A stretch of DNA of 64,000 nucleotides from Lama guanicoe. Lineage: Eukaryota. The notes below the pieces were generated by a model that was not told the DNA's origin, ran no database searches, and was given only the letters and a program-made list of their open reading frames with translations. A program made the position numbers and the translations under genes. The DNA lies in NCBI GenBank assembly GCA_013239625.1, contig MU056898.1, positions 1,455,717-1,519,716 on the forward strand, in the 5' to 3' direction. Shown here in pieces: positions 1 to 62,779 of this stretch; the stretch's first letter is position 1; the number at the start of each line of letters is the position of its first letter.

Positions 1-381
1 GATGGTGATGACGCTGGTGGTAGCCACCTTGGTGGGTGTGACGGGGCCACGGGCCACTGTGCGGGCGAAGGTCTGCAGGGCCTCGTACTTGGAGCGCAGG
101 GCGTCCAGCTCCAGCCTCATGCTGCTGTTCTCACGTGCCAGCTTCTCCACCTCCTGCTGCAGCTCCACGCGCTGCCGCTCCAGCTCCTCCTTCTGTGTCA
201 CGCGCTTGATGCGGCAGCTGGCGGCGTAGCCGCGGTTCTTGAGTGTGCGCCGGCGCTGCTTCAGGCGCACCACCTCTTCCTTGGTGAGGCCCCGCAGGTG
301 CTGGTTCAGCTCCCGCACCGACATGGACACCAGCTCATCGTCGCTGAGCACCGGGGCGTTCTCACCCGCCTCCTTCTTGAC
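1..381 (-). CDS. MAFK: MAFK last coding exon (bZIP domain), 3' end runs off the window
   Basis: The minus strand reads [127 protein letters not shown], i.e. small-Maf EHR + basic region + zipper. Acceptor CAG at 384-382. Confidence 0.97.
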
Positions 382-17116: not shown

Positions 17117-17222
17117 GGGTGGGTAGAGCCCAGAGGTGGAGCACGTGCTTAGCATGCACAAAGTCCTCGGTTCAATCCCTGGTACCTCCATTAAGGAAGA
17201 AAAGAAAAGGAAGGAAAAAAAG
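17117..17222 (+). mobile_element. tRNA-derived SINE (Vic-1-like)
   Basis: 'gagcacgtgcttagcatgcacaaagtcctcggttcaatccctggtacctcc' + A-rich tail; approximate TSD aaaagtgtgtgagg / aaaagtgcatgaagg. Confidence 0.85.
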
Positions 17223-39900: not shown

Positions 39901-42900
39901 GCTGTGGTCACCTTGGCTGCTGTTGACCTTTTCTCCTGGGGGGCATCCTGCTCGTCAGGACCTGGAGCAGAGCCTGGCTGGGGCCTGGATGACGAGCTGG
40001 GCAGGGGTGGCTCTCAGGGACCAGCGGGTGACCACGTAGGAGTGCTGTGCCCCAGCTGCCACGTGTTGTGCCCTTGCCCCCTAGGCCTGGCTGCCTGGGA
40101 GGAGTATCCCACGCTGAAGATGCTCATGGAGATGGTGATGACCAAGTAAGCGGCTCGCGGCTGCGGGGCCGCAGGCACAGCGCTGGCAGCGGGGCGCGCG
40201 GGGGCCCGGCTGCCCTGAGGCCTCTCCCTTCTCTGTGCTGCCCGGCCTCCTCCTGTCGTGGCTTTGGTTTCTGAGTCTGTCTGCTGAGCGCTGGTCTCTG
40301 CCTGTGCCAGGGCGGGGCAGCGAGTGTGTGTGTATGTGTGTGTACACCTACCTATGAGAGCAGGGACTGGGTGCACGTGGCCAGAGGCTGGGGACGGAAG
40401 TTCTGCTCCCTTGCATCTCTGCCAGCCGTCCTCTCTCTGACCCAGGAACTGACTTGGGGGCTTAAGGACAGCCCCCAGAGGGTAGCCATCGCAGGAAACT
40501 AGACTGGATTTCAGACTGAGAGTAGTCCAGCCCCGAGTCAGCCTGGGGATGCCCTGTGTGCCTTGGGCTGTGTGGCTGGTTGGAAGGGACCGTGGTGTGG
40601 GCATCCTGGTTGGTTGCTGCTCTAGGTCCAGGATCCTGACCACGTCAGCCTGTCGTCAGCCTGATGTCAGAGGCAGCCTGCATGCTGTCATGTGAAGGGA
40701 GGGGGCAGCTGGGCGTGGGCTCTGAGGTCTGACTGTGACCACATTGCCGATGTCCCCCCGCCCCCAGCCCCGGGTACCCCCTGCCACTTGAGGGCTTGTG
40801 CTGTGCACTGGGTGAGGGACGCTGTCGTGAGTCTTGACCCCCACCCTGAGTGCGTCTGACGGTGTGGAAACGAGCTCTCCTGCTTGGCCCCAGCAATTAC
40901 TCCTACCCGCCGTGCACCCTAACGGACGAGGAGACCCGGACTGAGATGGTCAACCGGGAGCTGCAGATCTCTCAGCGGGAGAAGCAGGAGATCCTGGCCT
41001 TCGAGGGGCACCTGGCGGCTGCTTCCACCAAGCAGACCATCACCGAGAGCAGCAGTCTCCTCCTGTCTCAGCTCACCAGCCTGGACCCCCAGTAGGCATT
41101 GCAGGCCCGCGGGGCTGAGCGGGGATGGGCAGGTGGAGGGTGGGGGCCCAGGCTGGAGGAGCGGCCCCCAGGTGCCTGGCGCCCCAGCCCCCGGCCGCTG
41201 GCCTGTGTTTCCACCAGGGCGGTGAGCCCTGCGGTGAAGCCGGGAGCCTCCTCAGCGGGGCTGGGAGAGGCGGGAGGACGGCCGGCCCCTTGCAGACCCA
41301 CCCTCACCCACCCGCCATCGTCTTTGTGAGGCGTCGCACTCACGGCTTTGACACACTCGTGTCCCTGGGACTTGCAGAGGGCCCCCCCGGAGGCCACCCC
41401 CTCACATCCTGGACCAGGTGAAAGGCCTCAACCAGTCCCTCCGCCTTGGGCATCTGCTGTGTCGCAGCCGGAACCCGGACTTCCTGCTCAACATCATTCA
41501 GAGACAGGCGAGTCCGGGGGGGCGGGTCCCCAGGGGCTGGGCCCCGGGGAGGGCAGGCGGGGACCCTCAGGTGTCAGCGGGCCCTGGCGTTGACTGAAGC
41601 CGCAGCCAGAGCACGGCACACAGGGGGCGAGGGACACACACCACTGGCCTCTCCGTGTGCAGATGATGCCCGCCCCCACGGCCACTATGGGGCACCACGT
41701 GCTGCCCCCACAGGGGGCCGGCGGGCTGAGCACGTGGGACTCCGGGCTGCCTTGGGGTTCCCAGCGGGAGGGCGGGCAGAAGGGTCCGCAGGGACTGCGG
41801 CAGGTTGAACTGGAGAGAGCCGTGTCGCCGCCCCACCCAGGCCTCCTCGCAGTCCATGCCCTGGCTGGCCGACCTGGTGCAGTCCAGCGAGGGCTCCCTG
41901 GATGTGCTGCCCGTGCAGTGCCTGTGCGAGTTCTTGCTGCATGATGCGGCCGACGACCCCGCTTCCGGGGAGGAGGAGGAGGAGGGCGAGAGCAAAGAGC
42001 AGAAGGCCAAGAAGCGGCAGGTGGGTGCCCGCCCCTCCCCTGCCTTCGCCCCCGCCCCACCGGCCCTGGTGGCCCGCCTGAAGGTCCCCCTCGCCCCTGC
42101 AGAGGCAACAGAAGCAGCGGCAGCTCCTGGGCCGCCTGCAGGACCTCCTGCTGGGCCCCAAGGCTGACGAGCAGACCACGTGTGAGGTGCTGGACTACTT
42201 CCTGCGGCGCCTCGGCTCCTCCCAGGTGGCCTCCAGGGTGCTGGCCATGAAGGTGACTCGGCGGCTGGTCCCCTGCCCTCCCCTGCCTGGGCTTCTCTTC
42301 TCTTGTCAAAGCGAGTGCTCGTTCCCACCTGGGTGGTTGTTGTAGCTGACTCGTGCTTAGAGGGGAAACGGTAGTGAAGTTTGCGAGAACCAGAGCCTTT
42401 CCCCGTCGCCTGGGGGTGCTTCCCTGGGTGGTGGCAGCCCGTCCTGAGAGTGGCTGGGAGCCCTCCTGCTGCGTCCCCGCCCCTGGGCTGCAAGGGAGCC
42501 GGGGGGCACAGGGGTGAGGCCCAGCACCCGTCTGCTTGTAGGGCTTGTCCCTGGTGCTCTCGGAGGGCAGCCTGCGCGACGGGGAGGAGAAGGAGCCGCC
42601 CCTGGAGGAGGACGCGGGGGACACGGACGCGCTGCAGGGCTACCAGTGGCTGCTGCGGGACCTGCCCAGGTTGCCCCTGTTCGACAGTGTGAGGACCACC
42701 ACCGCCCTGGCGCTGCAGCAGGTGAGGGCGCCGTGCGGGGGTGGGGCGGGCCGACTGCCTGGGGCGCGCTCACACAGCCCTCTCCCCAGGCCATCCACAT
42801 GGAGACTGACCCGCAGACCATCAGCGCCTATCTGGTCTACCTGTCCCAGCACACGCCCGTGGAGGAACAGGGCCAGCACAGCGACCTGGCCCTGGTGAGG

Positions 42901-45900
42901 GGCGGGGCGAGGGGACTCAGTGGCCAGGCCTGGTCAGGGCAGACGGCTGCATCTTGACTGTGGGCTCTGAGCGCCCGGCTGCCTTTTTGGTGACCTGTCC
43001 AGAGCAGGGGTTAAGGGCAGGAGACGCAGGTGCTGCTCTGGTCACTCTGGGCTCTGGGAGGGCGGGGGACCGACCCAGGAGTCTCTGCGGCAGGGGTCCA
43101 CGGGGTCCCTCTGGGCAGGGCGCTGTGAGCTGGGCGCATGTCTGTTACCTCTCCTGTCCTGCTCTTTCCTGGTCAGAAGGTTCTGACCTTGCTCTCCCGC
43201 CCACTTGTTGGCCGACAGTGACAGGGTTCCTGCGGAATGGACAAGTGGAGGGGACGAGGGGTTGGGCAGAGGACAAAGGTCAATGGGCAGGGGGATCTGT
43301 CTGAGTCTGGGTTCCTCTCCCAGAACTGGACAATGAGAGAAGCCCAGGCCTCGGGGCTTTTGAGGTCTTGCTCTTCTGACTGGTCCAGGGGCTGGCCTGC
43401 CCTGGCCTGCCCTGCCCTGCATCCCTGCCCCGCATCCCGGCTGCAGGGCTCAGATACACAGCATCTGCTGCCTGCAGACAGCCTTTCCCCCTGGGTCTTG
43501 AGAAACCCGGACTCCTGCCGCTCAGGGCTGGTGCCTGTGCTTCCCGTGGCTCACGCCCTCTTCATGCCGCCGTCCCTCCCAGGGAGCCTGGCTGGCTGTG
43601 GCCCTGTGCAGCTGGGGGCCCCGCGGGTGTGGCAGCTGCACCGGCCGGGATGCGGAGAGCATGGGAGCCCTCTGACGCCACGCCCTCCCACCCTGCCGCA
43701 GGACGTGGCTCGGCTGGTCGTGGAGCGCTCCACTGTCATGTCCCACCTCTTCTCCAAGCGCTCCTGCAGCGCCGAGTCGGATGCCGTGCTGGTCGCCCTG
43801 CTGGCCATTTTCTCCCGCTATGTGCGGCGCATGCGCAAGAGCAAGGAGGGCGAGGAGGTCTACAGCTGGGTACGGCGGCGGTCGGGCATCCCGGGCCCTC
43901 GGGGTCCTCGCCTCGGCCTGCTCACCCCTTCTCCTCTTCCAGTCAGAGTCACAGGACCAGGTCTTCCTTCGCTGGACCAGTGGGGAGACAGCCACCATGC
44001 ACATCCTGGTGGTCCACGCCATGGTCATCCTCCTGACGCTGGGGCCACCCCGCGGTGAGCAGCCCGCAGGCAGGGTTGGGGGCGCCAGGTCTCCCGCAGA
44101 GTGGCGGTGGATGCCCTCCCCTGCCTGTCCGAGTGCACCCCAGGGAGCACGTGAGATCCCCACACGGGGCCTCATGTACTGCTGCCCCACAGGTGGACAG
44201 GCCGGTGGTTTGCACACTCCTGCCACCTTGGCCCCCATGCTGTCCCATCGCTGGGAGCACGTGGTCGGCACCAGACGCCTTCCGTGCCTGCTCCTTACTT
44301 TTTTGGCCCAGCTGCTTGGCAGATGGCAGTTCCTGGAGGTGGAGGTGTCCGCGGGGGGCTGCCCAGTTGAGGGAACCCTGGGGCCAGGCCAGTGAGGTCC
44401 AGGTCCTCTCCACGGGCCTTGGGGTGTGGCCCTCGACTCGCTGGCTGTGGGCTGTGGGCTGTGTCCAGAGCCGGGGGATCCTCCGGCAGCCTCCCCTCCT
44501 GTCATCCACCGTCCTGACCGCTGCGGACAGCTCCACCACTCACTCGTATCCGAGAGTGGTGGGGAGGCTGGGACCCTTTGCTGGGACTGGTGCCCTGTGG
44601 GCTGTGCCGGGAAGGTGACCCCTGCCAGGACTCGGCGAGCTGTGGGTGGTGAGGGGGGCTGGCCTGATGCTGCCTGGCCTGTCGGCTTCCCGGGACTTGG
44701 AGCCCGAGCGCTGGAAGGAGCTGGTTCATCCGAGCCCACAGAGCCCAGAGAGCGTGTGGCCCGGGCCACGTGCAGTCCCCTGGGCAGCCTGGCCAGTTTC
44801 TCTGCCGTCGCTTTCTCCACCATGGGGTGGGGCGAGGCAGCAGTTACGAGGGTTAGACAAGTTACTTACTTGCGCGAAGCCTTGGGCGGGTGGGTGCGCC
44901 CGGCCCTCAGCGGAGCCTTCCGTGTCCCTCCACAGCCCAGGACCGCCTTCTAAACTGAAACACGCTGGCCCTCCCAGCCTTGGCTCTCAGCCGTCCGTGT
45001 GGCCGGGCCCCTTGGATGCCGAGGTCTGGGAAGGCCTCACAGAGCCCACTCTGTGTTCTCTCCTGAAGCTGGTGACGGTGAGTTCCGGGCGCTGTTGGAC
45101 ATCTGGTTTCCGGAGAAGAAGCCTCTGCCCACAGCCTTCCTGGTGGACACATCGGAGGAGGCGCTTCTGCTGCCTGACTGGCTGAAGCTGCGCATGATCC
45201 GCTCGGAGGTCCCGCGCCTAGTGGACGCTGGTACGGCCGGGGGTCCAGGCCAGGCCAGGAGCCGGCCGGGGTGTGTGTGTTCTGGCAGGGAGGACAGCTC
45301 GGGGCCTCTTGTGGGTTCCGGGGTGTCTGTTATTCAGCAGGCTCCGCAGAGCTGTCAGCATGCCAGGGAGGGCCCAGGGCCTGCACTGACCCTGCCCGTG
45401 AGCCCCAGCGGTCAGGTGGGAGGGCCCAGTGCCGGAGGAGGGACAAAGAGCAAGCAGTCCTAGAGTTGGGAAGGAAGCAGGGAAGGGCTAGGGCCTCTGA
45501 GCTGGTTTGGTGGGGGTGTCGGTGGCCTGTAGCGAGGAGGGGGCACCAGTAGGGGCTGGAGCAGCACCCCGCGGGGCGGCAGGCCAGGCGGTTTGGGACG
45601 CAGCTTGGCGGGGGAGGAGGGCTAACCTGGGTGCGCAGCGAGGACGCGCTTGGAGGACCCTGGATGCGGAGTGTAGGGAGCCGCCGCTGACCCCGGGGAG
45701 CTGGGGTCCAGCGGGAGGGCACGCAGGGCTGGCTGCGGCCTCGTGACGTGGGAGGGGCCGGCCCCCCAGGGGCCCCTCCCCTTGGGGTTGCTGAGGGGGC
45801 CGTGCCCTCAGCCTTGCAGGACCTGGAGCCCCAGCAGCTGCTGCTGTTCGTGCAGTCCTTCGGCATCCCCGTGTCCAGCATGAGCAAGCTGCTCCAGTAC

Positions 45901-48900
45901 CTGGACCAGGCGGTGGCCCACGACCCCCAGACCCTGGAGCAGAACATCATGGATAAGAGTGAGGGCGGGCCACGCGGGGGCGGGGCCGGGGCCGGGGGAT
46001 GCGCGGGGGCTGGGCTGGGGGCACGCTGGGGCACCTGTCCAGCTGCCCAGGTCTCTGTTCCTTGGAGATTAGAGGGTGTGGGGCCGGTGAGGGAGCCTGG
46101 GGTGTGTCCCCCTACTGCAGGTTTCTCTGGGGAGGAGAGCTCTCCTTCCTGTGGGGCCTATGTTTACCCTGGTTGCTGCTTCACAGACTACATGGCTCAC
46201 CTGGTGGAGGTTCAGCACGAACGAGGGGCGTCCGGAGGCCAGACTTTCCACTCACTGCTCACAGCCGCCCTGCCCGCCCGGCGAGGTAGCAGCCAGCCCC
46301 GCCCCGACTCGCGCACGCTGCTCCGGAAGCGCTTGCCGCCGGCAGTGTCCCAGCGCCTCTTTATCAGCCCACTCCTTGTGGGCCTCGGCAGGCCTGTGTG
46401 AGGCCAGGGTCCCAGGGGTCAGCCCCTCTGCAGGGCCTGTGAGCGGGCTCCTCCCTGGGCGGTGGGCCCCCCGGCGAGACTGGCCTTGGTTGGCGTGGCT
46501 CCTGCTGAAACTGGCTAGGAAGAGGTTCCAGCTGACACCCACTCCATCCCTGCAGACAGTGCAGAGGCACCGAAACCCAAAGGCAGCCCAGAGCAGCCGC
46601 CGGGCCAGGGCAGGACCCGGGCCGTGACTCAGGTGCGGGTGCTCGGCCCCGAGGACGACTTGGCCAGCATACTTCTGCAGGTACGGGACCCCTGCCCTCC
46701 CGCCCGCAGAGAGGGGTCTTACCCTGGAGCCCAGCCGGGGGCCCTCTCTGCACCATCCTCACCCCTCCTCACGGGGACACTGAGTGCAGAGCACTTGTGC
46801 CCTGGTTCACGCTGTCACACTTACGCACTGTGTGCGTGCAGTGTCCTCAGGTGTACACGTGGACAGATGCTCTTCCACAGACAGTGTCCTGGGCCCGGGC
46901 CTGTCCCCACTGTCCCCCACCCGAGGCCAGTACCAGTCACGAATGGAGAAGCCGAAATCTGTAGGGTCAGGGGCACGTCTGCTGCCTCACCCCGGAGCTA
47001 TGTCCCCTGCAGGCCCTTCTGGAGTCCTTGGCCCCCAACCGACTCCCCCTGGGAGAGTCTGGTGGGGACTGGGCAGCCCCTGGCAGGTCGAGGCAGGGTG
47101 AGGAGGCCTCCGCTGGGAAGGCTGAGTGCCCCCACCTTCTGGCCACGCGGTTCTGACTGCCCCCTCTTCCCCAGATCTTCCCGCTGAGCCCAGGCCCGCG
47201 GTGGCCAAGCTCCAGCGCCCGCCCTGCTGCCCTCGCGCTGCAGCAGGCTCTGGGCCAGGAGCTGGCACGAGTCCGCCAGGGGAGCCCAGAGGTGCCAGGT
47301 GTCGCAGTGCGCCTCCTGCAGGCCGTCGCCACTCTGCTCAGCTCCCCGCACGCCGGGGCCCTGGTGATGTCCATGCACCGGCACCACTTCCTCGCCTGCC
47401 CCCTGATGCGCCTGCTCTGCCAGTACCAGGTGGGGCCTCGGCAGCACCCTGTGCCTGGGCGGTGTGCACCGGCAGGGCCTCTGTCCCCAGTCCCCACCCC
47501 CCTGAGGCCTGTGCCTTCTGGGGTCAGGCCTTCCTGGGTCCTGGCCAACGGTGTCCTGACGCTGTCCTAGGACTTCCGTTCTTGCTCCTAAGTGAAAGGA
47601 GGAACTTCTGCTGTGGGTCCGGGGTAGATCCCGTCTCTGTCACAGAAACTTACCGCAAACAAGGCAGGAGGGGTCAGGGTTTCACTGCATGCCCACCGCT
47701 GGGTTCAGTAGCTCTAACACATCGTCCTCGTCTGCTCCTTGGCATGAGTGTGTTCTGTCACTCATGCTTGCGCGTGTGTGCGTGTTTTTTTAGCCTTTTC
47801 TCTGAACCATGTGAGAATAAGCTGCAAACAGGACAGCTCACAGGCAGTGGGGTTTGAAAGGATCTCTGCGAGTTCAGGGGACAGCGGGGGCCCTGCTGAG
47901 TGGCAGGTGGAGCGGCTACCCTCGGCCTGTGGTCTTCCCTGAGCTGTGCTGCCCTCTGTCCCCAGCGCTGTGTGCCCCAGGACACCGGCTTCTCGTCCCT
48001 TTTCCTCAAAGTGCTTATGCAGACCCTGCAGTGGCTGGACAGTCCCGCCGTGGAGCCCGGGCCCCTGCAGGCCCAGCTCAAGCTGTTCGCCACCCAGTAC
48101 TCCGCTCGACGCAGGATCAGTGATGGTGAGGGCCAGGCAGGGGCCCCCGGCTGTCCGCCACTGTGTCCAGGAGACCGCTTGTGCAGAGGGGCTGGGGGCA
48201 GCGGCAGCGTGTGTGTGGCTGAGTGGTTTGGTGGTCGGGGCTTCGGAGGCTCCTGGGGGAGGAAAGTGAACACGTAACCGAGGAGAGTCGCCCACCCCGG
48301 CCCTGGACAGGGCGGATGGGCGGCAGTCTGGTGGCTCACACGGAGGCCCCGCCCCTTCCCCCTCCCCCCCCGCAGTGCGAAGTGGGTTTTTGCACCTGGC
48401 GGAGGCCCTGACTTTCCGCGGGGACCCCGAAGTGGTCAGCTCCACTGTCCGGGCAGTCGTCGCCACCCTCAGGTCTGGGGAAGAGTGTGAGGTGGAGCCC
48501 GAGCTCGTCAGCAAAGGTACTTGGGCCCTTGACATGGTGAAGACCCCCAGCCATGCCACTCGGCACAGAGGTCCCCGCCTTGGGGGCCCCAGAGCCGGGC
48601 CTGTGGGGGTGGGACATCTGTGCTGGAGTCAGGTGGTCTGAGGGTGCCTCCTCCGTCCCCTGTAGTCCTCCAAGGTCTGATTGAGGTGAGGTCGCCTCAC
48701 CTGGAGGAGCTGCTGGCCGCCCTCTTCTCTGCCCCCTCCGCCTTCCCAGCCTCGAGGCCTGTGGCAGTGGTGAGCTCACTGCTGCTGCAGGAGGAGGAGC
48801 CCCCGGGAAAGCAGGACTCTGGCAGCTGCAGGTGAGCTGGGGGGGTGGCGGCCGGACTGAGGGGCAGCCCAGGGGACACCGGGCTGGCCACGCCTTAGCC

Positions 48901-51900
48901 CGCCCCTCCTTCCCTTCAGCCTAGAGGCCCTGCGACTGGGACCCTGCTCAGGGCTCCTTGTTGACTGGCTGGAGATGCTGGACCCTGAGGTGATCAGCAG
49001 CTGCCCTGACCTGCAGCAGAGGCTCCTGTTCTCCCGGGGCAAGGTGGGCTGTGCCCCCACACGATGCTCTGAGCCACGTGTTCCCCCGGCACCCCCATGG
49101 GGAGGGTAGGCTCTCCCTGTTGGTTCTAGCAAAGTCCCCTGCCTGGTTCTCATCAGCCAGATGGGCCCCTTGTTTCCTCTAAGCCGGTCAGCACAACTGG
49201 CCAGATGTGGTCTCTGGGGCAGGCGGTAAGGAGTGGGGTCGGTACTTTGTGGGCCCAGGTCCTCACGGACCAGGAGGCGCCGGTTGGCAGGAGCAAGAGT
49301 GGAGCCCAGCACCGCCTGATGAGGAGTGGGGTCCTCCAGGGGGCTGGAGCCCACGTCAGGGCTCTGCAGGGGTGGCGGGGGTGACCCCTGCTTATCAGTC
49401 CATGGCAGAGACGCTGAGTGGGTGGCCGGGATGAGGCTGTGCACCCTCGCCGCATGCCGGCGGGCCTGTGTGTGTGGGAGTGGTGGTCACGTCCCCGCAC
49501 CCCCCACCCGCCCACGTGCTCCCGCACCCTGTGTCTTGCTAGCGTACTTCCTCATCTCTGAGGAGCTGATTCAGTTCAGCACATGTTTAACCTTGGAGTG
49601 ACCGGCCGTGCCAGGTGGTACTTGGGCAGCCAGTGCTGCCCACCAGGCAGGAGCCCCAGCTCTGCCTCAAGATGGACCCGTCCCCTGCCTTGTGGCAGCT
49701 CAGGTGGGCTGTTGTGTGCTGACCCTGGTCAGCAGAGCTGGTCCGCCCAGCGGGCACCATCCCAGGTTTCCTCCTTCTGCAGGGCAAAGGCCACCCTGGC
49801 CCCCAGGTGCCGTCTTTCCGACCCTACCTCCTGGCCCTCCTCACGCACCAGTCCAGCTGGTCCACCCTGCACCAGTGTATCCACGTCCTGCTGGGCAAGG
49901 CCCGGGATCAGAGGTGAGGCCCTCCCCTAACCCCCAGGTCTGCTCCTTCGGCCTCACGGCCGGCGCCACCCTGCTTGGAGCTCCTCCGGCACCAAGTGCA
50001 GACAGCAGCTGGGGGCCCCGGGGCATCCCACCCAGCGCCCTTCCCTGGCTTCCTCAGGGACCAAGGGCTCTTCAGCCAGACCCACTGCCCTGGAGCACAT
50101 GACCACCGTTGTCTGCGCTGTGCTGCGGGGGGTGGGCAGGGCCGACACGAGGCGCAGAGCGGTCAGCGGGGGCCCACGTCCATTCCCACTGGCAGGGCTG
50201 TCCCGCCCTGTCCCCTCTGCCTTGCTCAGCCCGGGCTCCGGGCTTCCTTGCAGGTTCGACCCTTCGGCCTCCCTGGACTTCCTCTGGGCCTGCATCCACG
50301 TCCCTCGGGTCTGGCAGGGGCGGGATCAACGCACCCCCCAGGCAGGTTTCGGGGCGCACCCTGCCCGCAGGGCGAGTGGGTGGCGGGCATGCGAGCCCGC
50401 CCTGCCCGGCTGACTGGCGGACGCATGGTTGCAGAGGCGGCGGGAGGAGCTGGCGCTGCGGGTGCGGGCCCCGGAGCTCGTTGGCCTGGTGGAGCTGGTC
50501 TTGGCGGAGGCAGAGGCCCGGAGCCAGGACGGGGACGCCGGTGCCTGCGGCCTCCTGCAGGCCCGGCTGCCCCTGCTGCTCAGCTGCTGCCGCGGGGAGG
50601 ACCAGAGCGTCAGGAAGGTGGCAGCGCACCTGACAGGCTGCATCCAGCAGTGGGGCGACAGGTGAGGGCCTGCCCCATGGGCTCAGGAGCCCCGCCCTGT
50701 CCTCTCGCCCATGTGACCACAGGTGCCCCTCGACGTGATCACCATGGGCATGAGGCGGGCCGGTGGCGGGCCTGGAGCCCCTGCCGAGAAGCCCACCGCC
50801 CAGCTCTGGGCACCACCCGCAGCAACCCCACATCTGGTCTGTTCCAGCGTGTTGGGCAGGTGTTGCCAGGACCTGCTGGTGCAGCTCTACCTACAGCGGC
50901 CGGAGCTCCGGGTGCCCGTGCCTGAGGTCCTGCTGCACAGCGAGGGGGCCGCCGGCAGCAGCATATGCAAGGTGAGGTCCACTGGGGCTTAGCGGGCCGC
51001 TCCGGTTCTCTAGAAGTGGAAACCCCAACTGGGAAACGGAGAAGCATTATTTTGGGTTTAAAAACCATAGGAACCTGGCGAGTGGTGGTGGCGTGTCCGA
51101 GGGCAGCGCCTGCCCCACCACCTTCGCCTGTCCGATCCCTTGGAAGGTCTGGTAACAAACTTTACTTCTTAAAGTAATTGGGTGTGGAGCAGAGCAGGGC
51201 AGGTGCCGGCTCACGGCCCCCTCGCCCCACAGCAGGCCGCGAGGTGTGATGACAGCCAGGGTGGCGTGTCTCTGGCGGTCCTGCGCCTCCCGCCCCAGGC
51301 CGCCCCTCTCTGTCTCTGCACGTCAGTGGGCCCCCCAGCAGTGCAGTTCAGGTCCGCGGCGGACCAGCCTGCCCACTGCCCTCCCGCCGTGGCGTGGGGG
51401 CTCTCCCCGGCCCCGCTTCCCGGCCCTGCTTCACAAGATGGAGGGATGCGGACGTCTCTGCAGCTGGTTTTCTCTGTTTTGTGTGTCACGTGTTGTCTTA
51501 AACACTGAACTTACGCTGTATTTGTGAGGTTGGTTTTCTCTGCGTGGAGTGGTTTTGGCTCTGGTACCGAGCGCCTTTGCCTCTGTCTGTGGGGAGAGGC
51601 TGAGTGCACACACTATGTGTTGAGATTGGCTGGGAACTTCAGCTGCGGCCTGTTTGACCCTCAAAAGCGCCAGGAAGCACTGGGGGCAGCTCTCTGGGTC
51701 ACCATGGGGGTCCCAAGGGGTTTGGGGACCCTGGCCCCAGGGGTCCGCCCCTGCACAGCGAGCCCTGTTGTAGCCCCTGCAGCGGTGGGCAGCAGACTCG
51801 GGGGCGGGGGCAGGCAGGGCGCGACGGCAGCCCTCGGTTCTGACCGTCCGTTCCTCCCAGCTGGACGGCCTCATCCACCGCTTTATCACCCTCCTCGCGG

Positions 51901-54900
51901 ACACCGGTGACTCCCGGGCGTCTGAGAACCGAGTGGCGGACGCCAACATGGCCTGTCGGAAGCTGGCCGTGGCCCACCCACTCCTGCTGCTCAGGTACTG
52001 CCTGCGGCCCGGTGGTTTTGCGGGCTCGGGGGACGCCCCCAGCCAAGCTCAGGGGCGGTGCCCCTCCTGCCCTAGCCCCGAGCGGGCCTCCACTCCAGGC
52101 GCTCCTTCGGGAATGCACACTATGGCCAGAAGCTGGTCCTCGCAGGGGCTCGAGGCCCTTGGCAGCTCCCTAAGGAGCCTCGGCGGGAGGGGCCTCCGAG
52201 TGGCCCAGAACCAGGGGGATGCAGAGGCCCCACACGCCCAGTCGGGGTGTCAGCGAGGATGAGAAGCTCGTGGGGCCGGGGTGTTGGCTCTCTGGGTGGG
52301 GGAGGGGAGGCAGGACCCAGCATTCTCGCGTCGCCCCCAGGCATCTGCCCATGATCGCCGCTCTCCTCCACGGCCGCACGCACCTCAACTTCCAGGAGTT
52401 CCGGCAGCAGAACCACCTGAGCTTCTTCCTACACGTACTGGGTGTCCTGGAGCTGCTGCAGCCGCACGTGTTCCAGAGCGAGCACCAGGGGGCGCTGTGG
52501 GACTGCCTGCTCTCCTTCGTCCGCCTGCTCCTGGTGGGTGCTGCCCCCACCCCACTGCCCACCCGCCCACCTGCCCAGCCTGGGCTCTAGGGGAGGGGGA
52601 AGGCCATCCTGTTCTGCTGGCCCCTGCCCTCTGGACACCACGGCTAGGGTGTGGGCCACGCACAGGGGCCGGGACCTCAGGGGGCATGTGGCCTCGTCCC
52701 TCTCCCTGCACCCTTCTCAGCCCACCCCCCACCCTGCCCCCATCATTCTGAACCCACTTCCCATTCATCTCGGCCCCCCCTTCTCCCGTGGCTCTGGCAG
52801 GCCTGGTCTTTCTAACCAGGGCTGGGGATCCGCTCCCCTCCACCCAGGGCTGCTGGGTGAGGGCAGACAGGGGCTGCGGGGCTTCCCAGCACTGCTGGGA
52901 CCCTGCAGAGGAGGGCCCCTGCCTGGCAGCCTCACCCTGGGAAGGTTCCCCGCTGCCCACGTGCCTGGGAGACCCCATGTTTTTCAGGGTTCACAAAGGG
53001 CAAGGCCACCTCTGATCCTCTGGGACCTTAGCATGCTGCCCAGCAGAAGGCAGCATGCCGGGGCATCCAGGGTGCGCTCACCATGAGGTCTCTGCTGTGA
53101 ATGCCCCCTCGCTTGGCTTCTCTCTGCAGAACTACAGGAAGTCCTCCCGCCACCTGGCCCCCTTCATCAACAAGTTCGTGCAGTTCACCCACAAGTACAT
53201 CACCTGTAACGCCCCGGCGGCCATCGCCTTCCTGCAGAAACACTCCGACGTGCTCCAGTGAGTGCGCGTCCAACCCAGGCTTCTCGCGGCGAGGGTCCCG
53301 CCAGGGGCTGCCGGGAGGGGCGTGGCGGTGGGAAGGATGCCACCCGCAGCGTGGGGGCCCCAGGACAGCAGGGATGGGCCAGGCGTGGCACCCGGCTCTG
53401 GACACAGAACCAGGGCTGTTCTGAGCTGGCTCCCCGCCTCCCTCCCTTGGCCCCGGGGACGTCCCCCGAGCCCCTCCCCAGGGACCCCCGCCTGCCTCCC
53501 ACCTGCGGCGTGGTCCTCACAGAGAACCTTGCTCCCCCAGCGACCTGTCCTTTGACAGCAGCGACCTGGTGATGCTCAAGTCGCTTCTGGCAGGGCTGAG
53601 CCCTCCCAGCAGGGACGGCAGGGCCGACCGAGGCCTGGATGAGGAGGGCGAAGGTGAGAGCAGGGCCCGGAGCTCCTCTGGGAAGGGGCAGCAGGCTGGG
53701 CTGTCCTGGGTGTCCCTGGGGCATCGATGGCCCCAAATCCATGGCATATACGAAGCACCGAGTGGCACTGTGGCCAGTGTGACCACACAGCACCCCTCTG
53801 TCCTTGGGAAGCCAGCCACGTTCTCCTGTTCTCTGTCCTTGTCCCCCGTCTCCATCCTGTGGCCTTTACAGCCCAGTGGTGACCTGGCACCCACAGCCAG
53901 GTGGATGAGTGAACGAGCTGAGTGACGGGCCTGGGTCCGTTGCTGGCCCTTCACGGCCATCCTGCCCCAATTTTGCTGAGTCACGTATTGAGCGGAACTC
54001 CTGGCTGCCCGTGGACACGCTAAGCACGGTGCCCTGTGCCAGGCGCCTTCATTGAGCACCTGCTGTGCGCCCGAGCGGCACAGGGAAGGTTGCCAGCCAC
54101 GCTCCCTGGGTGGCAGGTGGGCCCAGGAAGGAGCAGCAGCAGGTGAAGCCCAGGAGGAAAGTGCAGTCTCCCAGGCGCCCCCAGCAGGCTCCTTGTTCAC
54201 TGCGTTCATCGAGCGCCCCTGGTGTCGCAGGCCCTGTGCTCAGCCTGGGACGGGGGCCGCGTCTCCGGGGGTCTCCTGTGATTCTGGGCGCTGCTCAGCA
54301 AGGTGTCCCTCAGTGTTGAGTGTGTCCTGGGCCGCTGCCCCGGGCGCACCTCCTCCCAGGGCCCTCGTGGATGGCATATCTGGGGTGGGCTGTCTCATCT
54401 CCAGCCCGACGGCACCGGCTTCCTGTCTTGCAGACGAGGGCTCTGCTGGCTCCCTGCCCCTGGTCAGCGTCTCCCTCTTCACCCCTCTGACCGCAGCGGA
54501 GATGGCCCCCTACATGAAGAGGCTTTCCCGGGGCCAGACGGTCGAGGGTGAGTTTGGGGGCTTGGCTCCCCCAGGCCAGCTCAGCCCTGTGGTGGGCAGT
54601 AGCCTCCCATTCTGTTCCTGTGGTGTTCGGATCCCACTGCGACCCAGGCTGTCCAGGTGTCTCCTGCTGGGGCAGCCAGGAGAGGGCAGGGCGCAGAGAG
54701 GCTGTTAGAGGAAGAAGCAGGGGCTGGAGGCCGGGGGCACTGTTCTACGGGCCAGTAGTGTTGGGGTACCCCCGGAGTCCCCGTGGACACAGGGGAAGAG
54801 AGGCCCAGCAGTGCCCTGGCCGACAACCCCTGGTCTTCTGCGGGGGAGCTGAGGGCCCGAGTGGCCACCAGTGCCTGGGGCAGGGCCATGTGTCTGCAGC

Positions 54901-56587: not shown

Positions 56588-56593
56588 ATTAAA
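56588..56593 (+). terminator. INTS1: INTS1 polyadenylation signal ATTAAA
   Basis: The only canonical hexamer near the stop codon; followed by a GU-rich tract 'gtggctgctggtgtagtttg' at 56611-56630. Confidence 0.8.
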
Positions 56594-60925: not shown

Positions 60926-61080
60926 TCACTGTAAGCTGCTTGATGAAGAGAGGTGCTGCGACATGGCCAAGGACACACAGCCATCGGAGGCAGGGCTGGG
61001 CTTCCGTCCACCCTGGCCCTGCTGCCTGCTGCCCCACCAGCCCCTGCAAGGTGTTAACAGGGACGGGAGGGCCAGGCCCC

Positions 61081-61580
61081 ATTACAAGGGGTTCCTATAA
61101 ATGGCATGAGGAGGATTAATAATGTATTTATAACACATCGTCACGGTAGCCGAAAATGATCTATAAATGTGCGGTAAATGTTTTATAATGTTTTTGTAAC
61201 CCGTTATAAATGATAAATGGCAGACTATAGATGCCGGATCAAATATTTATAACGCATTGTGTGCGACGCTGGGCTGCTACAGTTCAGGAAAGCCATTAAT
61301 AATAAAGTGGATGGAAATGTAAAAGTTACCGACGTGCCCAGCAAAGCCATTTGTAATGAAATGCGAAGTTCGGCTGTGGGAGGCAGCCCATGAGCCCTGC
61401 CGAAGCACCGGCCAGGCTCCCCCAGAGCCCGGGCAGGGAGCGGCTCGTGAATTATTTGCAAGGACTTCCGACGAGGATGTATACTATCCATAGCAGGCCG
61501 TATAAATATGCTATTAATATACCCCAGGCAGCATGCATTATTCACTGGGCCTAATTAATTAATGGTAGCCCCTTAAAATG
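61081..61580. promoter_or_regulatory. AT-rich homeodomain-motif cluster, candidate conserved developmental enhancer
   Basis: Seven TATAAA/TTTATA motifs and several TAAT/ATTAAT motifs in a non-repeat-like AT island within GC-rich DNA. Confidence 0.6.
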
Positions 61581-62779
61581 GGGTGTCACAGCTTCCAGCT
61601 CTCTCCTGCCTGGGGCCTTGGCATCCTCAGCTGCCCGAGTGAGCAGTCGGCTGACCTGACCATGGCCTTGGGAGAGGGGGAAGGAGGGGACACCCCTTGC
61701 ACAGCCTGCTGTGACGCCGGCGTGACCCCCAACGTCATTCATCTGTGGTCGGTGAGGGGCTGGCGTCCATCCGGGGGGCTCTGCTCACTCCCCGCCCCCC
61801 CGAGCATCCATCTCCCACGATGGCCAGCACGGGCTGGGCACTTCCACAGGTCAGCCCTGGTGCAACTGGGACCGGGGCACCCATCTTACCATATAGATGA
61901 GGAGGCTCGGAAGTTCGGAGCCTTGGACAGAGTGACAGGGCAAAGCCGAGCTGAGTGAGGATTCCAGCAGGGCTCCCAGGTCTGTTCTGTGCGACACTCG
62001 CTTGGTAAGACCCTCCAGTAGCAGGGGTTCCGTGGGTACGTCACTTTGGGAACCCCTGTGGCAGCTCCCTTGGGAGGCAGGGTGCATGGCAGGGGATGAA
62101 GGCTCTGAGAAGTCCTGTGGGAAGGGCCGCACGGGCGGGTACTGCCCGGTCTTTTCTCTCACCTCCCCCCACCGCCACACACACACCACACACACTTTCC
62201 CTCTGCTGCGAGGGCTCAGGGCACCGCCAGCTCAGCTGTGTTTGAACAGGCGCCCCTGCTTCCATTCCAGCTCAGTCCATCAGCCCCGGTCAGATCTGTT
62301 GCTTGGGGTTAAAACCACCAGTTGAAGGGTTTGCAGACCCCACCCCACCACTCCAAGGTGTGATTCCGGATGCTCGCCACCATGAACCCTGGAGGGGTCC
62401 GGTCACCATCGCATCCTCCTGGAGCTGGCTTTGGAGGTGCATATTAGTGATGCCTCTGGCCGGGTCCTCCGTGGTCTCCACCACTGTCCCTGCTGGCCTC
62501 CCAGGGAAGGGGCCCCCATCGTCACTGAGAGGGTCTGAACACACGCTGGAAGGAGGACCCTCCCTCATGCCAGGACCGGGGCTCCTCAGTCCCAGTTCTG
62601 CCTGGCAGATCGGGTGCTTCCTTCTCTTCTGGGAACCTCATTTTCTTGAGCTGCAGAGTAGGTAGAGTCAGCCCACTTTTAAAGGGTGGCTGTAAGTTTT
62701 CTGTGAGAAAGCGGGTGTGAAGATGACAGAAGAGGCAGAGCAGGGGGGCCTGCTGGGCACTCCCCACCCCGTTCCCCAG

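Follow-up and report, generated by a model that had tools for sequence, protein, structure and literature searches.

An AT-rich island between INTS1 and MICALL2 in the guanaco genome: a likely ancient transposon-like repeat relic, probably retained as a cis-regulatory element

An AT-rich patch of ~510 bp (61073–61583) lies between INTS1 and MICALL2 in the window, the 64,000-nucleotide stretch of Lama guanicoe DNA analysed here (contig MU056898.1). The patch had been described from its letters as not repeat-like, a description that fails on two counts: three more copies of its 5′ half are scattered through the same genome, and its ends are imperfect inverted repeats. We are accordingly fairly confident that the island originated as a repeat. 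Given that origin, we lean modestly towards a retained function. The reading as a whole, in which an ancient transposon-like repeat relic was probably retained as a cis-regulatory element with UNCX and MICALL2 as its candidate targets, has in our judgement about an even chance of being right.

The order of genes is INTS1, island, MICALL2 and then a paired-type homeobox gene, and the synteny proposed in the sequence-only reading, with MICALL2 and then the homeobox gene UNCX on the island's side, holds in this respect. A candidate INTS1 poly(A) signal was located by AATAAA scan at 56588, 4.5 kb ahead of the island. Past the end of the window, extended position 65848 marks the start of a CpG island and of a calponin-homology-type N-terminus, after which comes a bMERB exon; from synteny we take this gene to be MICALL2, and its start is 4.3 kb from the island. 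The homeobox exon is on the minus strand ~164 kb beyond the island, so that the MICALL2 start is ~40 times closer. We assume that this homeobox gene is UNCX, from the linkage of Uncx and Micall2 (PMC6543554). At the other end of the window there is a small-MAF bZIP exon (73–348, minus strand; MAFK by synteny), and TMEM184 lies just ahead of the window start.

The island is abrupt, as had been claimed. GC content is 37.6% between 61077 and 61363 and 41% in the 3′ arm, on either side of a GC-rich middle, against 63–66% in the flanks (Table 1). The words that had been listed are all in place: TATAAA at 61096, 61162, 61205 and 61501, TTTATA at 61127, 61182 and 61246, AATAAA at 61301, GATAAA at 61212, GATCAAA at 61237, five copies of ATTAAT, and TAATTA at 61552 and 61556. 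Two looser TGATNNAT words (61157 and 61211) and three words that match a forkhead-like pattern are also present. Seven of the 12 TATAAA/TTTATA hexamers of the window fall within 61081–61580, compared with 1.15 ± 1.07 in dinucleotide shuffles (seven or more in 0 of 2000), and ATAAA/TTTAT occurs 9 times where 3.4 are expected (p = 0.003). The observed/expected ratio of CpG is 0.89, which exceeds that of all 47 fixed 500-bp bins of the 40–63.5 kb region, but the number of CpGs, 21, is typical of the neighbourhood (median 24). Other explanations of the patch were rejected. Two reading frames overlap it and neither has a Pfam match, the longest stop-free frame being 109 codons (minus strand) and the longest ATG-started frame 88 codons; no tandem array falls at the island among the eight in the window; and, as regards a structured RNA, there is no Rfam family at the island and the fold z-score is −0.04.

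Table 1 Coordinates in the window of the island's parts and of the INTS1 exons
Feature	Position	Strand	Remarks
INTS1 exons	42448..52587	+	7 of 65 ORFs match INTS1 domains PF22929/PF22927
Body common with copies on C6107, C7351 and C55231	61073..61366	+	GC 38%; six of the seven TATAAA/TTTATA; profile E = 3.6e-26
Candidate terminal inverted repeat, left arm	61077..61102	+	26 nt, 77% complementary to 61558–61583; ~52 nt at 69%
Inner inverted pair, left arm	61104..61132	+	29 nt, 72% complementary to 61501–61529
GC-rich middle	61364..61444	.	81 bp, 74% GC; without match to the other copies
3′ AT-rich arm	61445..61583	.	41% GC; TAAT/ATTA cluster; linked to the repeat solely by its inverted resemblance to the 5′ arm
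Inner inverted pair, right arm	61501..61529	-	contains the seventh TATAAA
Candidate terminal inverted repeat, right arm	61558..61583	-	ends where the AT-rich island ends on the right

Searching the guanaco genome with the DNA of the island identified a second locus (L002, on contig C6107) with E = 1.8e-13 and 68% identity over 257 bp. L002 as the query led to two more, L004 on C7351 and L006 on C55231, to which the window copy is 65% identical over 154 bp and 65% identical over 113 bp, respectively; pairwise identities among the copies are 65–73%. The pairwise scores with the window copy, 175, 99 and 67, lie above the maxima of 45, 52 and 48 obtained with shuffles. An nhmmer profile made from only the three other copies has a single match in the window, that of the common body in Table 1, against E = 6.6 for the reversed-window control. 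The four copies are on four contigs, homology stops at the element, and the flanks have only multi-copy repeats in common, with no shared flanks or exons within 30–40 kb of the copies. The island differs in this from the one neighbouring AT-rich island tested as a control in the INTS1–UNCX interval, which is single-copy (1 of 1).

The evidence for copies concerns the 5′ half. The 3′ half has no match elsewhere in the genome, and when it is aligned to what lies 3′ of the shared part in each of the three copies the scores are not significant (155, 468 and 216 of 500 shuffles do as well). No additional locus came from DNA searches in which L004, L006 or the 3′ parts served as the query. Pattern searches returned 26 extra hits (1 + 3 + 16 + 6), none of which was confirmed by seed-masked or flank alignment, and the terminal pattern found only the island's own two ends together with six unconfirmed hits. 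Four borderline candidates (L013, L059, L070 and L079) were dropped. The yield of five DNA searches and four pattern searches is thus four copies, a lower bound, as the genome search scores only the best candidates. The surroundings of the three other copies were surveyed for genes through 75 frames; the matches were a single reverse-transcriptase fragment and three hits below the threshold, and they named no neighbouring gene. A pattern scan of metagenome contigs gave no hits, a result that is uninformative for vertebrates. Among public runs, all the sampled words were found in 14 of 24 rows, with 11 marked as a possible source of this DNA, and six RNA rows contain a fraction of 0.08–0.31; neither conservation nor expression is indicated by these figures.

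The two edges of the island are inverted with respect to one another, and a second inverted pair is nested just inside them (Table 1). How unusual this is depends on the background chosen: the inverted-arm score of the window was reached in 0 of 1000 shuffles, in 14 of 1024 real windows in an anchored test and in 20 of 302 in a wider test, giving an empirical p between 0.014 and 0.07. In L002, too, there is an inverted pair of 29 nt whose axis is almost the same, with 391 nt between the arms compared with 368 for the inner pair of the island; the score of the L002 pair is equalled by 21 of 798 background windows. No inverted partner arm was found in L004 or L006. A target-site duplication is not evident in the flanks, where the termini are uncertain and old duplications decay. 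Taken together, the architecture suggests a non-autonomous DNA transposon. The GC-rich middle is likely to represent either drift to the local composition or a later insert. The sequence-only reading had set a match to a transposon against its own proposal; the repeat copies come close to such a match, though not to a named transposon.

The motif cluster can be followed into the copies. TATAAA/TTTATA occurs 4, 5 and 4 times in the 306, 271 and 216 bp of the other copies and 6 times in the corresponding 301 bp of the window copy, and many of these words in the other copies sit in aligned columns. Because unlinked copies each carry four to five of the same hexamers, the cluster appears to be a property of the repeat, and was most likely brought with it. 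GATCAAA and the AATAAA at 61301 are not common to the other copies. The cluster provides an example of a trap in motif reading: what looks like a significant group of homeodomain-type words can stem from the way an old repeat is built inside.

Several properties of the island correspond to those of known ancient repeats. Low-copy families such as Eulor, UCON, MER125–136 and X_DNA are concentrated where sequence is conserved, and most of them either have no class or are listed as unclassified DNA transposons (PMC5753468, PMC3500645). Their median consensus is ~238 bp (PMC3500645), and 19 of 24 MER136 copies and 79 of 119 MER125 copies are in conserved regions (PMC3500645 supplement). Self-complementarity is a feature of the Eulor families, and an enrichment in p300 signal is described for several families of this sort (PMC9710123). 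Like Eulor, UCON, MER125/126/135/136 and X_DNA, the island is low-copy, a few hundred bp long and non-coding, with self-complementary features and diverged unlinked copies, and it lies near a developmental gene; the likeness is one of description, and the multi-copy nature applies to the 5′ half only. The island also resembles MITEs, the non-autonomous DNA transposons with terminal inverted repeats, in its length of ~510 bp, its AT-richness, the lack of a long ORF and the candidate, imperfect inverted ends with their nested inner pair. It is unlike them in having no visible target-site duplication, terminal arms that are unmatched in the other copies, few copies and no known autonomous partner. 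The relic is best described as a likely ancient low-copy non-autonomous DNA transposon of the Eulor/UCON/MER125–136 type. A copy that seemingly keeps both ends could be of use in assigning a class to one of the ancient repeat families, many of which have none.

Indirect signs of constraint were sought by comparing the window copy with the majority of the other copies. It has 47 changes from A/T to G/C and 11 in the opposite direction, compared with 71:65 for the other copies pooled (p = 0.0002); when CpG columns are left out the figures are 34:11 and 68:58 (p = 0.013). From this excess, we conclude that the window copy has felt the regional GC pressure. It keeps 131 of 187 A/T columns unchanged and is still 38% GC amid flanks of 63–66%. 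Because AT content has been held against surroundings of 65% GC, a regulatory role of the island stays plausible. The motif columns agree with L002 at 28 of 30 positions and the other A/T columns at 103 of 132, a difference that is not significant (p = 0.07). None of the 12 aligned CpGs is common to the copies, and opposite 7 of the 12 one or more of the copies have TG, CA or TA; since these seven may be ancestral CpGs that decayed elsewhere, the idea that all the CpGs were newly gained was dropped.

If the island is a retained repeat relic, the element would have inserted between INTS1 and MICALL2 long ago, and with it would have come a set of TTTAT/TAAT words that was already assembled. The GC-rich surroundings would then have driven the less important positions to G/C while the A/T words were held, and the island would act as a homeodomain-bound (or forkhead-bound) enhancer within the UNCX–MICALL2 regulatory block, the responding gene being UNCX at 164 kb or MICALL2 at 4.3 kb. 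The repeat-delivered cluster proposed here, retained near a developmental gene, has parallels in the exapted MER130, UCON31, AmnSINE1 and LF-SINE; these have ChIP or transgenic support (PMC9710123; PMC5753468), whereas for the island this mode of action is a proposal made from sequence. If it is under selection, it would be another ancient repeat that supplied a ready-made enhancer at a developmental locus, a kind that is already well known, and the human orthologue may be annotated already.

The same relic might instead be neutral, an AT-rich element whose composition is still drifting towards the 65% GC of its surroundings and whose motif cluster is functionless internal repeat structure. 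We regard this as unlikely, though it deserves serious weight. Copies that lie in unrelated AT-rich surroundings carry the motifs too, there is neither a high-affinity CDX/HOX13 heptamer nor a full TCF core in the island, and AT-rich stretches survive elsewhere in the window too, at 10.6–12.2 kb and 21.7–23.1 kb. A younger neutral insertion would be AT-rich as well, and the copy number may be underestimated, only the best candidates having been scored. Against neutrality, we would expect a neutral family with pairwise identities of 65–73% normally to show many copies, where four were found; the CpG ratio is the highest locally; and the 81-bp middle has already reached 74% GC with both arms remaining near 40%.

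A different origin, to which we assign a small probability, is that the island is a conserved non-coding element (CNE) duplicated in the vertebrate whole-genome duplications, or in an old segmental duplication; developmental genes related to one another would then each have a paralogous enhancer next to them, up to four in all. Exactly four copies were found, the contig of L002 carries SOX8, a gene of the same paralogon, and a SOX10-type gene adjoins a MICALL paralogue on C1972. The linkage of Uncx and Micall2 and CNEs at the locus have been described, with conserved peaks between the two genes or at Uncx (PMC6543554). The island shares the locus with these CNEs and is, like 29 others, an AT-rich island in GC-rich surroundings, but it is on the far side of MICALL2. 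The genomic positions of the copies weaken this explanation. L002 is 3.3 Mb from SOX8, past an alpha-type globin cluster (4.24–4.27 Mb) and a drop in GC, which from human synteny is presumably past the end of the SOX8 paralogous segment; an early placement of L002 beside SOX9/FAM20A was rejected, the gene being SOX8-like and the FAM20A-type exons being on C3168. Paralogues of MICALL, TMEM184, small MAF and FAM20 were located on C1972, C3168, C8970 and other contigs and no copy was detected there, and the HOX cluster on the contig of L006 is 22.5 Mb away. Nor do the copies have flanks or exons in common within 30–40 kb, and inverted ends are not expected of a duplicated CNE.

The sequence-only reading itself, a unique and deeply conserved CDX/posterior-HOX enhancer assembled de novo and dedicated to UNCX, we now consider improbable. 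Its excess of TTTAT cores is real, and the number of TATAAA/TTTATA words is the highest of the 30 AT-rich islands, with a homeobox exon 164 kb away. TTTAT is a posterior-HOX core and TGATTTAT a PBX–HOX site (PMC7710020), and Uncx marks somites, the sole use made of it in PMC7259794. The island is multi-copy, however, and its words are common to three unlinked copies. It contains no bipartite TGATTTAT site and none of four high-affinity CDX/HOX9–13 heptamers (TTTATGG, TTTATTG, TTTACGA and TTTATGA). The TCF-like GATCAAA is where it was said to be, but the G with which the TCF core ends is missing from it. Binding by CDX/HOX is thus possible and is not indicated over that by other A/T-binding factors. 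The enhancer had also been placed beyond forward CTCF-like sites; with a strict CTCF-like pattern there is none in the window, and four CTCF-like cores intervene between the island and the homeobox gene, with the MICALL2 start only 4.3 kb off. No published enhancer between INTS1 and MICALL2 was found in the literature searched; it may already be covered by subscription papers, by tracks of genome browsers or by the VISTA figures that supplement PMC6543554.

A more ambitious version of the repeat reading is equally doubtful. Here, an undescribed ancient family of inverted-repeat transposons would have carried a ready-assembled array of posterior-HOX/CDX words, its near-full-length copy would have been co-opted as a long-range somite/spinal enhancer of UNCX, and the sister copies would be matching enhancers elsewhere, forming a small transposon-seeded posterior-HOX network. 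Least probable of all is a local role in transcription, the patch aiding termination of INTS1 read-through or serving an upstream MICALL2 start: apart from the likely INTS1 signal at 56588, the AATAAA at 61301 is the sole A[AT]TAAA word on the plus strand in 50–70 kb, there are several TATA-like words and the MICALL2 CpG island is 4.3 kb away, but the AATAAA is not common to the other copies and the words are on both strands.

A scan of 211 kb in and around the INTS1–UNCX interval gave 30 patches rich in AT and in TAAT/TTTAT words, the island among them. The 29 others lie past MICALL2 (L016–L035, C8664:1552197–1715576) and are densest near the UNCX-type homeobox gene. They include several candidates for conserved elements and some that overlap with multi-copy repeats, and the one tested, as above, is single-copy. 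Just past the window end, translations indicate a short sequence duplicated on either side of a run of N upstream of the MICALL2 CpG island (L016:150–800). Within the window, 17119–17212 gives a weak tRNA match (29.8 bits, E = 0.037) and is also 78% identical to an unlinked locus; it is likely to be the head of a tRNA-derived SINE. On C6107, between 3.57 and 6.87 Mb (L080, L100–L114), the GC-rich segment containing SOX8 and the alpha-type globins is joined to a long AT-richer segment, and this junction in composition is likely to be an evolutionary chromosome junction. Finally, two loci on C5673 (L124 and L125, at 2397177 and 2400527) are 3.3 kb apart in opposite orientation and identical over the 230 bases printed, representing either a recent inverted duplication or an assembly artefact.
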